DNA of 63,215 nt, filler included, from Sluysia triapertura (lineage: Eukaryota): the NCBI GenBank assembly GCA_046118255.1. It is 5 parts of 5 records of this genome, joined end to end, with 100 filler letters (N's around TTAATTAATTAA, not from the genome) between each part and the next. Parts side by side here need not be neighbours in the genome. Positions count along the whole stretch, not along the records: positions 14,585 to 28,379 come from JBJNIA010019629.1; positions 28,480 to 40,014 come from JBJNIA010183613.1; positions 40,115 to 52,318 come from JBJNIA010129516.1; 2 more parts are not named here. One strand, given 5' to 3'. The notes under the pieces were generated by a model that had not been told where the DNA came from, ran no database searches, and saw only the letters and a program-made list of their open reading frames with translations. Numbering within the stretch: position 1 is the stretch's first letter; each line of letters begins with the position of its first letter. The translations under genes were made by a program, and so were the position numbers. Below, piece by piece: positions 21,071-43,077 of the stretch.

Positions 21071-21119
21071 CCAACGGCTAGCCCTAACAGGTAAGACTAG
21101 ATACGTTGGTGGACTCACC
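21071..21119 (-). other. Structured-motif copy 1 (type A)
   Basis: GGTGAGTCCA CCAACG TAT CTAG TCTTAC CTGTTAGGG CTAG C CGTTGG, followed by ATTTTT. Confidence 0.6.
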
Positions 21120-21421
21120 ATAAACATTCTTTATATCAATAAAGAAATTAAGTTGATTCATCAGTTGATTCAAAGTAACTAACAAGTATTCGTGGAGTAC
21201 AGAAAGAGAAACGAAGAAATTAAAAATTATCAGACATTTCTGCAAAAAAAGCAAATATAAAACCAATCAGATTTCAGATTTTGTTAGTTTAATAAAGTTG
21301 CATTTTGCATAAGAATAAATAATCATTCTTTCAATTTTATTCAAGTTTAGTAACAAAAATTTATACAAAACGTACTTAATTTTTCCAAAAATCTAATTCT
21401 AGAATAAAAGCAAACACTAAC

Positions 21422-21758
21422 CCTGATCTGTTACAAAAGGATTAATGCATTGATCATCATTTGATTTTGAATTTGAATCAATATCATCTGCCGTACTTTT
21501 TAAAATATTCGATTGTGACATAATTTTATTTAATAAATCTGTTCGATTATTAAATAAATTTAATTTAAAATTAGACGACTTAATATCATCAAATAATATG
21601 GAGATAGTTCGTTCCATTATTGGTTGCAATAAATCTGGTGTAATACTTACAAATTCTTTAATTCGATTTGTTAATTCTTGCGATATTGTAACTGACTGAG
21701 AAGATTCGGTACCCACTTCCAAATTTATCGGTACTTCAACACTACCGTCTGTTATAAT
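21422..21758 (-). CDS. CEP350: CEP350-like, internal exon
   Basis: TTCAG acceptor (phase 0), GTTAGT donor (phase 1); open frame IITDGSVEVP..VTDQ; phases fit both neighbouring exons. Confidence 0.65.
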
Positions 21759-22059
21759 CTGAATAAGTAAAGTACAAATATATTTCATATTCACATTTAA
21801 CTCTTACCATTCCAACTGTCAGCAATACTGCCAAGTGAAATATTGATAAAAAATCTTTTTTATATTCCTTTATTGTATTTACTCAACGTTTATAAATATT
21901 CTTACTAATAAAATGTATGCAGCATATTTTTTGGAGTTGGCTAGAAATAACTGTGTAAAAATACAATAAATTTGTTAACACACCTACTTTATTACATATA
22001 TTTAGTACATTCGTTAAGTAGTAAGCCTAACATATAAAGAAAAAAACACAAGATTCGCA

Positions 22060-22400
22060 TATATTTAGAAAAATCAATGTAAACATTTCTTCCACTGGAT
22101 TACGACATCTTCCATACCCATAGAATATAAAGTCGTTTTTCGAAATATTTCATGACAATAAACATTCATTTAGAAATTTCAAATTTTTGTTCACTTAAGT
22201 ACTTCTTTAAGTGCTTGAACAGTTAATATATATGAAACAAATTTGAAACTGACCCAAAGTAACTTATGAACGCATCCAACTGGAATATTAAATTCTGTCG
22301 ATAAATCTCAAGGATACGTTTGAAATGTTTCTTTATAGATCTCCAATTTCAATCGATCCACCAACTTTGTGTTCCTTAAAAAACAGAAATTTATGCATTA
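22060..22400 (-). mobile_element. Tc1/mariner-superfamily transposase HTH remnant
   Basis: DLSTEFNIPVGCVHKLL..FKFVSYILTVQAL resembles the .LS.EL.I....V..IL...L...PYK....Q.L region of DD37D/DD41D transposases; many stops. Confidence 0.5.
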
Positions 22401-40114: not shown

Positions 40115-40440
40115 GTCAAAATTAGTATAAATCCAAAATTTTGTAATAATAATTAATAGTTAATACGAATCCAAAATTTCTTGTAATATTAAATAGTCAA
40201 TAGTAATAATAATCCAATACAATATCAATTAATAATCAAATTTTTGTAATATTAAATAGTCAATAATAATAATAATAATAATCCAACACAACATCAGTTA
40301 AATTAAATAGTCAATAATAATAATAATAATAATCCAACACAACATCAGTTAAATTAAATAGTCAATAATAATAATCTTGTACAATATCAGTTAAATTTTT
40401 GTAATATTAAATAGTCAACAATAATCATAATTTTTTGTAT
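40115..40440 (+). repeat. Degenerate ~50-bp minisatellite (attaaatagtcaat(aat)n ccaacacaacatcagttaa)
   Basis: Two near-exact and several degenerate units next to the linker. Confidence 0.85.
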
Positions 40441-41074
40441 AGTATAAATCCAATCATAATTTTTGTTATGCATACAGATTCAAAATTCAATAATACATGC
40501 AATAATAATAATAATACTTAATTATTATTTCACTCTATTCTGGAATATCATACTTGAAAATATTAAAATATTACTTAAAATTAAAATATTACTTATTAAA
40601 TTTATTTAAAATATTACTAATATTATTTAAAATTTATTATAATACACATTTAAAAATTTCCATGCATTGACATTTAACATTTATATTCTATTTATAGTTT
40701 ACAGAAATATTACAGCTATTATAATATACATATATATTATAAATTTATATATTTATTACAGAAATATTACAGATATTATAATACACATATAGTTAGTTAG
40801 TCTATAGTTTACAATTACATACTGTTTCTATTTAATTTCAATTTAATATGATTTTTTTCGATTAAAAAGCTTTTAAATTTTCCTTATGTATAATTTGGCT
40901 TTTATATTCTAATTCATGTTTTTAAGACTATTTTAATCGGATTTTATATTCTTAAAATTGGATTAATTTTACTGTTATTTAAGATGATTTATTGACTACA
41001 AGAATAAGGTTTGATATATATATATATATATGAGAAATTTAAAAGTAAAGTAATAGAATAAAGCGAAAGTTTAA

Positions 41075-41122
41075 CGTGAGTTCACCAACGTACTGGGCTT
41101 ACCGGTTTGGGCCAGCCGTTGG
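41075..41122 (+). other. Structured-motif copy 4 (type A)
   Basis: CGTGAGTTCA CCAACG TA CTGG GCTTAC CGGTTTGGG CCAG C CGTTGG, followed by GTTTT. Confidence 0.6.
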
Positions 41123-43022
41123 GTTTTGTAAATCAAAAAAGTCTCAAGTGGTGCTCAAAAAAATGCTCGAGGACTTCTATGCTTAATTATACTTTTAACT
41201 ATCTGGAGGTAAGTCAGAAATATTAATTGAATTATCTTATCAAGAGTAATAATAATAATGTTAATTAAATGATTTTACGTTGATTCCTTAAAATGGAATC
41301 TATAGATTTATTTTACGTTGTTATATTTAAATTCTAACTTTGGGAGAACTTTTCTAAGCGATAGATTTTATAATTAAAACTATGTAAATTAAATTGGAAA
41401 CAAAAAAAATTAATTTCAAATTATTTATTTAGAACGTTTACTTTGGAGTGAATGACAAATAATAAAAATAACAATTTACACTAATTAACTCGTGAGTTAA
41501 TGAATAATGAGCTTCAGATTAAAACAAAATTTAGAAATTAATTTATTGAAACAAAAAAAATATTTTATAAATTTGTTCTATTTTACGTTAGTTTAATTTA
41601 AAGATTAATTTTTCAAAAGTTTAATTAAAGATTTTATATTAATTATTTTTCAAAAATAAAATTAACAAATTAGACAAAAATTATCGAAACTTACATTTAA
41701 TATAAAAATATACTCTATACTTTCCAAAAATGACAAATAATAAATAATTACAATTAAAATGACTAATATGTTAAATAAATGTGTGTCTTACAATAAATCA
41801 AATCAACAAATGTATAATCAATAAATGTATATATATTGTCTTTATAGAATCTCACTTTCACTTTATATTTAATTGTTATTTGTTATTACATTTTGAATTT
41901 ATATTAACTATATGTAATCTCATTTTAAATTGATACCAAAGCATTATAATCTTAATAATTTTTAACCAAATATTTTATTAAAAATATGTTTAAATATTAT
42001 ATTTTATTAAAACTGAATAAAATGAAGAATGAGCATTGTGTCTATATATTTTGCACTCGTCTCTGATCTAAGAAATGGAAATGCAATTTTGTTTAACAAA
42101 AGAAAATTGACGTTTTCTCCTTTAACTAAATAAAATAGATTGAACCCACTAAGATTTATACATCAAATATAAAAAATAATGAATTAACAGTTTATTATAT
42201 AAAAGGTAATTGGTATAAAGTTCGTGACAAAATAATGAAATGTACCACACGTAAAACGTCTCTAATTTCTCAAAATGTACTCACGTCGTTATTTTAGATT
42301 TATAAAAATTTTCTATTTTATCACTTTTTAAATGTTATTCTGGTTTATATAAAAAACAAAATGAATCAGTATATGTTACTAGTTGATAATTAAATACCTC
42401 GATTTTTCAATTAAAATATGTGGAATTTACTTAAGTTATGTCCTTGTCTTGTATTGACTCGAACTGGTTTGAATCAAATTAATTGGCCCTTGAAATCGAA
42501 TCAATAATTTTCTACCAATGTTGATAGTATTCATCAAGTTTTTATAATAGTGCTAGTTGTAATTTTAATCATAAACAAAATTATTTTTTATTATATAATA
42601 AAACTACTTATTTACTATTGTTTTATTTTCACTATTATTATTATATGATTGAATTATTTTTTTGTTATATAATAGAATTGCTTTTTACCTACTTGAAATT
42701 CATAATGTATTCAATTATTTTATTCAAATATCACAATAGATTTTTTAGTTATTAAGTTTATTGTTTTAATCTTAATTTATTTTGTTTAATTTTATATTAT
42801 TAACAATACAAACAAATATTTATTAGCTGATATCATGCATGTGCTACATAATTTAAATATTCCTAATTTTTCGAACACAGACTATAAAAAATTCACAAGA
42901 TTATAATTTACTACATTGTACAATTAAAATTCCAATTTTTTTTGTACAAATCGAATCGAATATAATACTGCAAGGATTTTAACTTATAAAAGTTTAACTT
43001 ATACTTGCAAAAAGATTCTGGA

Positions 43023-43077
43023 GGTGAGTTCGCCTAATAGACACGACTTAAATCTGAACGAAAGCGTTCGAATTAGG
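43023..43077 (+). other. Structured-motif copy 5 (type B)
   Basis: GGTGAGTTCG CCTAATAG ACACG ACTTAA ATCT GAACG AAAG CGTTC GAATTAGG, followed by ATTTT. Confidence 0.55.

Follow-up and report, generated by a model that had tools for sequence, protein, structure and literature searches.

Only about ten natural self-cleaving ribozyme classes are known (passages in PMC10085705), and most of the recent ones came out of bacterial data. In metazoans, ribozyme-bearing dispersed repeats and retrozymes have been described, and the twisters on Schistosoma Perere-3 provide a flatworm precedent (in portions of PMC7761336, PMC6765202 and PMC8501958); more precedent from flatworms and other animals is given in sections of PMC11662667 and bioRxiv 10.64898/2026.07.22.740005. 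Here we analyzed a 63,215-nucleotide (nt) stretch of DNA from Sluysia triapertura (assembly GCA_046118255.1), referred to below as the window, in which a motif of about 52 nt occurs in six copies. The motif may be the conserved RNA core of a very short, high-copy, non-autonomous retroposon family, with self-cleavage as its tentatively favored role. It is a real, abundant, structure-conserved tiny repeat and probably a new variation on the theme of the ribozyme-bearing retroposon. A literature search of titles and abstract openings retrieved no published description of the motif, and the supplements of ribozyme surveys could hold such sequences.

The window consists of five contigs joined by N linkers, has about 25% G+C and carries spliced eukaryotic genes. 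The named full-length proteins that best matched its CCT6 protein were from cestodes and trematodes (65–67%). In a quick tree using 34 of 121 proteins, this CCT6 fell among flatworms and outside the cestode and trematode clades, so the host, judged by this protein, is a monogenean or a free-living flatworm.

Copies and structure of the motif

An earlier note on this DNA had described five copies (c1–c5). These were recovered within a few bases, on three contigs separated by N linkers, and a sixth copy (c6) was added on a fourth contig (Table 1). Copies c1, c2 and c4 are termed type A, c3 and c5 type B, and c6 represents a third subtype. A pattern written from the copies gave five matches in the window versus a mean of 0.00 in 100 dinucleotide shuffles. 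When only c1 and c4 were used to build a covariance model and this was run on the window, c2 ranked next (E 5e-10), followed by c3 (E 0.02) and c5 (E 0.06), and c6 first appeared as a weak match (E 2.1). A topology descriptor that included CTTA matched c1, c2, c4, c5 and c6, missing c3, versus no matches in 40 shuffles; without CTTA it gave six matches versus a shuffle mean of 0.68. No reading frame containing a copy was found for any copy, and a recoding signal, one of the roles suggested earlier, is therefore unlikely. The broader suggestion of a cis-acting RNA module of a mobile family stands in the form of a structure-conserved module of a repeat family. Copy c1 probably lies on the sense strand within a host intron of ~2.5 kb (~21420 to ~18900), as placed by eye from exon-like frames.

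From its first nucleotide, G1, each copy comprises a 7-nt strand A, 1–2 nt, a 6-nt strand B, 5–6 nt and a 7-nt strand A' with CTTA, followed by a small hairpin, a C-N-A joiner, strand B' and, in five of the six copies, a T-run. Stem B (6 base pairs, bp) covaries. All 36 of 36 pairs are kept over the six copies with two-sided changes at four of the six positions, and only 4 of 720 between-copy re-pairings of the strands were equally good, all of them swaps of identical stems. The central observation of the earlier note, that pairing in this stem is kept while the letters change, was thereby borne out. All five of c1–c5 have the full six-pair stem; of 30 distinct public sequences that fit the same pattern of letters, 1 has it.

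The 5' helix between A and A' comprises 7 bp from G1, with 39 of 42 pairs formed over the six copies and recurring G-U/G-T pairs. The pairing of GTGAGT with CTTAC that had been proposed is thereby extended, and it receives no support from covariation: its letters are nearly invariant and 288 of 720 permutations were as good. Because of this near-invariance a pseudoknot is possible, not demonstrated. The helix was favorable with RNA energies only on the given strand in five of the six copies, in agreement with the strand specificity claimed before; with DNA energies the asymmetry nearly vanished (at most 0.4 kcal/mol). The inner stem held up in part: it has 4 bp only in c1 and c4 and 3 bp in c2, and is preserved neither in c6 nor in type B. 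Two of its nucleotides also belong to the 3' strand of the pseudoknot helix. As read from the sequence register, C-N-A precedes the last strand in all six copies, the joiner being CYAG in type A and CGAA in type B (65 public contigs carry the letter giving CUAA). Nested folding of single copies was modest and unexceptional (z −0.05 to −2.37). RNAalifold chose the 5' helix in an alignment of four copies where stem B was out of register. For c1–c5 a 5' GYG/CRY hairpin closing an AGUY loop also fits, but it is broken in c6 and was therefore dropped as a common fold. The structure kept across three subtypes points to selection on structure.

Abundance, boundaries and companion word

Contigs of one public sequencing run were aligned to positions 40950–43250 of the window at 80% likeness. 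The summed depth within c4 was 256,087 versus 11–23 for the single contigs listed; summed depth is not copy number and was taken only as a sign of a very abundant repeat. The motif is such a repeat, which agrees with the finding of six copies within 63 kb. The type A core is covered by at least 127 of the contigs listed and a type B variant is borne by 92, making type A the more abundant subtype within this comparison. Loose contig ends among those listed piled up before 41076 (75 contigs), before 41071 (55) and behind 41127 (84), and beyond them agreement was only 0.48–0.56 with an A/T-rich consensus. Because of these pile-ups and the low agreement, the unit shared at many loci is the core alone, which runs from G1 through the T-run.

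The flanks told the same way. In a comparison of 54 flank pairs, only the upstream flanks of c3 and c5 were clearly similar, sharing ~55 nt more (p<=0.0007), and one further pair was marginal (p<=0.023). The type A flanks could not be aligned, as the earlier note had stated, and the public contigs showed unrelated flanks; the possibility that the flanks are as conserved as the motif, raised there against the idea of a distinct element, was not borne out. Overall likeness between the spacer behind c4 and the type B extension was not above background. Exact-pattern scans elsewhere gave 0, 3 and 0 matches in viral contigs, 25 in metagenomes and 15 in prokaryote genomes, all of them chance-like, and such scans say nothing on other animals.

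The word CTGGAGG was first noticed directly upstream of c3 and c5. Two of its four other sites in the window lie on the same strand as a copy, 79 nt (c6) and 127 nt (c4) from G1, and the chance of such placement within 130 nt behind a copy is p ~1e-4, or 1e-3 with a wider window. In c5, moreover, an 11-nt piece of the core 3' end recurs 102 nt upstream (expected in 3% of cases by chance), and terminal redundancy was above chance only in this copy. The occurrence of the companion word on either side of copies suggests permuted monomers of 83–133 nt. Read together with the direct repeats, it may therefore reflect monomers of this length entered at different points. A 9-nt direct repeat around c6 was also considered and rejected as not significant (16%). 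As a separate observation, AGGATTTT occurs 15 times in the window versus 4–6 expected, with three extra words at 20734–20950 (−), within 350 nt downstream of c1.

Table 1. Copies of the motif and associated features in the window.
Feature	Position	Strand	Remarks
c6, third subtype	7048–7101	−	7/7 Watson-Crick 5' helix; compensated stem B; without 3' T-run
Companion CTGGAGG of c6	7016–7022	−	79 nt from G1
c1, type A core	21066–21118	−	Probably on the sense strand of a ~2.5-kb host intron (by eye)
Companion-like CTGGATG of c1	21035–21041	−	77 nt from G1; relaxed pattern, one-letter variant
c2, type A core	28840–28893	−	Compensatory changes in stem B and the small hairpin; a microsatellite lies 50 nt upstream
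c3, type B core	37278–37335	−	Pattern match
Type B 5' extension of c3	37336–37381	−	Core 3'-end repeat (AGGATTTT, period 92); CTGGAG adjoins G1
c4, type A core	41076–41127	+	Both termini match pile-ups of loose ends (75 and 84 public contigs among those listed)
Repeated spacer behind c4	41128–41214	+	Ends in CTGGAG with GTAAGT next, a putative junction of monomers (period 133)
Type B 5' extension of c5	42969–43023	+	11-nt direct repeat of core 3' end, period 102
GGATTT in c5 extension	42974	+	P1 5' strand in HDV-like register
c5, type B core	43024–43082	+	Terminates with hairpin, CGAA, stem B 3' strand

Comparison with described RNA classes

No Rfam 15 family matched any copy at E<=1 in a search of the whole window, the best local match over a copy reaching E 2.5 and 16.5 versus 82 bits (c3 and c4 regions). 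The clean Rfam match that the earlier note named as evidence against a new element was thus not found, and no known catalytic core fits the motif.

The likeness to ribozymes of the hepatitis delta virus (HDV) type lies in the order of parts: a 7-bp helix from G1, a short joiner, a 6-bp stem, a hairpin, a C-led joiner and a closing strand. Counterparts of an HDV-type P1 (6–7 bp from G1, nested with P2) are present with the 39/42 and 36/36 pairs given above, P1 without covariation. As the earlier note had put it, this order comes without P3 and L3; in descriptor tests, a 3-bp P3 with canonical L3 fitted nowhere in the window, and in the common register only 5–6 nt stand where HDV P3 and L3 would be. 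P3 and L3 in HDV need about 13–14 nt, and described minimal HDV-like forms lose P4, not P3/L3. The motif differs from HDV in having only 13–14 nt between the strands of the 5' helix, with no room in type A and c6 for P3, L3 and P1.1. In P1.1, pyrimidines of L3 pair with a GG behind P1, and in all six copies no GG follows the P1 3' strand. At J4/2, where HDV-like ribozymes carry the catalytic C in a CNRA-like joiner, the copies show the C-N-A given above. Because P3, L3 and P1.1 have no room, the active site of type A cannot be that of a standard HDV ribozyme. According to a part of PMC3774820, P1.1, P3 and L3 of HDV-like ribozymes amount to fifteen nucleotides. A further likeness is the dispersal of copies in repeats, as reported in passages of PMC6765202, PMC3774820 and 10.1101/2023.06.13.544163 for HDV-like ribozymes, a group that includes HDV, CPEB3, R2, L1Tc and theta.

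One copy came closer to HDV. With a relaxed HDV descriptor that was tuned after seeing c5, this copy was the only match in the window, versus none in 60 shuffles. Its register has a G1-U wobble, a 6-bp P1, a 5-bp P2, P4 and the CGAA joiner; P3 has 2 bp (with G-U as closing pair it would have 3 bp, and P1 would shrink to 5 bp), L3 is non-canonical, and P1.1 cannot form, its partners being unpaired. Copy c3 did not fit, and a looser descriptor also matched c3, c4 and c6 in unrelated registers. Because of the post hoc descriptor, the 2-bp P3, the non-canonical L3, the missing P1.1 and the unfit c3, the motif was not filed as HDV-like.

Descriptor and regex tests on the six copies agreed with the earlier reading that hammerhead, twister and pistol cores are absent. 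The hammerhead core (CUGANGA with GAAA) had no matches within 80 nt of the six copies on either strand. Retrozymes and Penelope-like hammerheads, in the part of PMC7761336 concerned with them, resemble the motif as non-coding, high-copy elements with a short, ribozyme-sized motif in non-coding DNA, and hints of permuted, more-than-unit-length copies are shared with retrozymes as presented in sections of bioRxiv 10.64898/2026.07.22.740005. They differ from the present elements in their hammerhead core and in their units of 150–300 nt versus 83–133 nt, and the putative monomers here are not highly self-paired; the described retrozyme circles are unusually stable, unlike these monomers. Twisters, T-variants included, were sought with a loose descriptor of L4, pseudoknots T1/T2 and the UA/GA internal loop, which matched in 0 of 12 copy-strand tests versus 13 of ~300 random segments. 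With pistol (passages in PMC6154101) the motif shares a possible pseudoknot of the 5' strand with the joiner between the long stem and the small hairpin; it lacks a P1 hairpin conserved about the 5' strand (c6 breaks it), the G-C-G (G40-C41-G42) after the pseudoknot and a 2-nt last joiner (GU junction). A short pistol regex matched in 2 of 12 copy-strand tests, not common to the copies.

A resemblance to hatchet (RF02678) was considered and rejected. GUGAG stands at the 5' end, and GGCUUAUAUCU and UAUUAG surround the hairpin in c3, but the catalytic segments C20-A22, U28-G31, G63-G66 and A73-A75 (taken from part of PMC6561176) are not conserved here. A profile of 18 natural hatchets gave a best E of 7.9 in the window, at c3, and pairwise p values were 0.0025–0.67 for the sense strand, with one antisense control at 0.0125; the resemblance is weak, and the 13 conserved residues of J1/2 and L2 are not kept. 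Introner-like elements (ILEs), finally, share with the motif the multi-copy state, compensated structure, GT/GC start, branch-like word and YAG, and differ in that the copies here lie outside exons, with a conserved unit whose end is not the AG.

Candidate explanations, neighboring features and implications

Our tentative preference is for a putative self-cleaving module of tiny non-autonomous retrozyme-like retroposons that cuts 5' of G1. HDV-like ribozymes cut at the same position. Copies would be read through in host transcripts, and the core would fold and cut 5' of G1, releasing monomers of ~83–133 nt (core, A/T-rich linker and CTGGAG) that are perhaps circularized. A reverse transcriptase supplied in trans could then copy the monomers back from different start points, giving copies that start at G1 (c1, c4 and c6) and others that start within the linker and are terminally redundant (c3 and c5). 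This reading is favored because of the selection on structure in three subtypes, the G1 boundary, the HDV-like order with its conserved C, the permuted companion and the precedent in metazoans. A more specific version is rather doubtful: a putative new ~50-nt self-cleaving ribozyme class, with a single pseudoknot and an HDV-like skeleton without P3/L3, would drive the 83–133-nt retroposons via circular or tandem RNA monomers, and type B would link it to the full HDV fold.

Several results weigh against self-cleavage, in addition to the invariant A/A' helix and the lack of a fitting known catalytic core. The alignment is limited to six copies, and the letters of the pseudoknot helix can equally be read as a splice-site consensus. 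At the 5' boundary, 55 contigs reach 5 nt upstream of G1. No tandem array was present near any copy in the window, and Pfam detected no reverse transcriptase or endonuclease near the copies in 30 + 18 hand-picked frames, including those around c6. Copy c2 has no clear CTGGAG, the homologous 8-nt repeat of c3 at 92 nt is expected in 35% of cases by chance, and direct repeats around c1, c2 and c6 (16% each) and c4 (94%) were not above chance. The putative circular monomers were not unusually stable (z −2.15 to +0.08).

The strongest rival, in itself unlikely, is a splice-signal element: a structured mobile mini-intron, which would resemble an introner or be that part of a Penelope-type terminal repeat which holds an intron. 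G(T/C)RAGT would then serve as 5' splice site, CTTAY as branch point and YAG as acceptor, and the apparent pseudoknot would be a by-product of these consensus words. GC at +1/+2 and A at +3, the two start variants seen, are tolerated by splice sites. All six copies start with G(T/C)RAGT and carry a branch-like word, a YAG follows in all five copies tested to give candidates of 35–59 nt, and the 5' boundary falls at GT; conservation of A/A' without covariation would be explained as well. Fungal ILEs are multi-copy introns with compensatory changes (in passages of PMC3609843), and some terminal repeats of Penelope-like elements contain an intron (in part of PMC6765202). Yet excising the candidates opens no frame in c1–c5 (3–19 codons on the shorter side versus a null median of 11), the flanks are A/T-rich, and there is no pyrimidine tract; the conserved unit of type A extends 12 nt past YAG, and the YAG of type B lies within stem B. 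The fold could also be a non-catalytic RNA signal in a family resembling short interspersed nuclear elements (SINEs), serving as a reverse-transcriptase handle or protecting the RNA end, with the T-run as RNA polymerase III stop or priming tail. We regard this as unlikely too: neither a tRNA-like head nor a shared body stands beside the type A cores, c6 has no T-run, and a partner element with the same end was not found near the copies by Pfam in hand-picked frames. It does draw on the same structural and copy-number evidence as self-cleavage, on the T-run after the last stem in five of six copies, and on a microsatellite ending 45–50 nt upstream in two of five copies versus a background of 1.5% per site.

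Two further explanations appear improbable. The very short unit, sharp ends and high copy number would suit a hairpin element of single-stranded DNA that an HUH-type nuclease moves (a Helitron/Helentron-like end or a unit like repetitive extragenic palindromes) or a tiny miniature inverted-repeat transposable element (MITE), and the stability of stem B is the same on either strand and as DNA. Helitron 5' ends begin A|TC, and so does the opposite strand in five of six copies, as read from the sequence. Such an element is opposed by the G-U/G-T pairs of the 5' helix, the absence of a CTRR end with upstream hairpin at the other boundary, and a search of the contigs of c1–c5 for terminal or subterminal inverted repeats (exact matches of at least 9 nt) that returned only A/T-rich words; the transposon terminal palindrome envisaged by the earlier note as an alternative was thus not found. 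Type B, on the other hand, might be a divergent true HDV-like ribozyme, having P1 with the 5' extension across a long J1/2, with type A and c6 as shortened non-cutting derivatives. The unique fit of c5 speaks for this, as does the P1 5' strand within the extension common to c5 and c3; the shortcomings of that fit listed above speak against it, as does type A, the more abundant subtype in 40950–43250 and one with compensated stems.

The window holds other features of interest. A decayed retro- or provirus-like element in many pieces lies at 2000–6300 (−), ~800 nt downstream of c6. It has a gag-like part in which a CCHC zinc knuckle can be made out by eye, and pieces of a fusion glycoprotein of the Monjiviricetes type (E 6.5e-8); Pfam detected no polymerase in hand-picked frames of it. 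A pogo/Tigger-like DDE transposase fragment is present at 7392–7844 (−), ~300 nt upstream of c6. At two contig ends, 28480–28554 and 63139–63213, near-identical inverted copies of 75 nt have TTAA-CCC ... GGG-TTAA ends and resemble a piggyBac-type MITE. A second very abundant repeat (summed depth ~95,000) occurs at 41853–42047 and 25173–25366, its copies in the window being 83% alike. An open frame of 230 codons at 38463–39152 (+) had no Pfam or Atlas match, and 37430–37760 may, by eye, be its decayed duplicate. A C/D-box small nucleolar RNA-like match at 46453–46527 (+), just upstream of a CPSF1-like exon, is weak, its 34 bits (E 0.098) falling short of the curated cut-off. A tRNA-like sequence at 51508–51579 (−), which may be a pseudo-tRNA or the head of a SINE, scored 27.2 versus the Rfam cut-off of 29 bits and was not called by ARAGORN. 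At 939–1307 (+), three 105-nt tandem repeats open a frame with a weak DEAD-box match.

A high-copy animal motif with compensated stems and without a catalogued core offers a cheap direct test for another ribozyme class. If cutting is true, the motif would be either a new class or an HDV fold able to work without P3/L3. If it does not cut, it would still be an unexplained 52-nt unit spreading under structural selection, which would bear on the origin of minimal retroposons or new introns.

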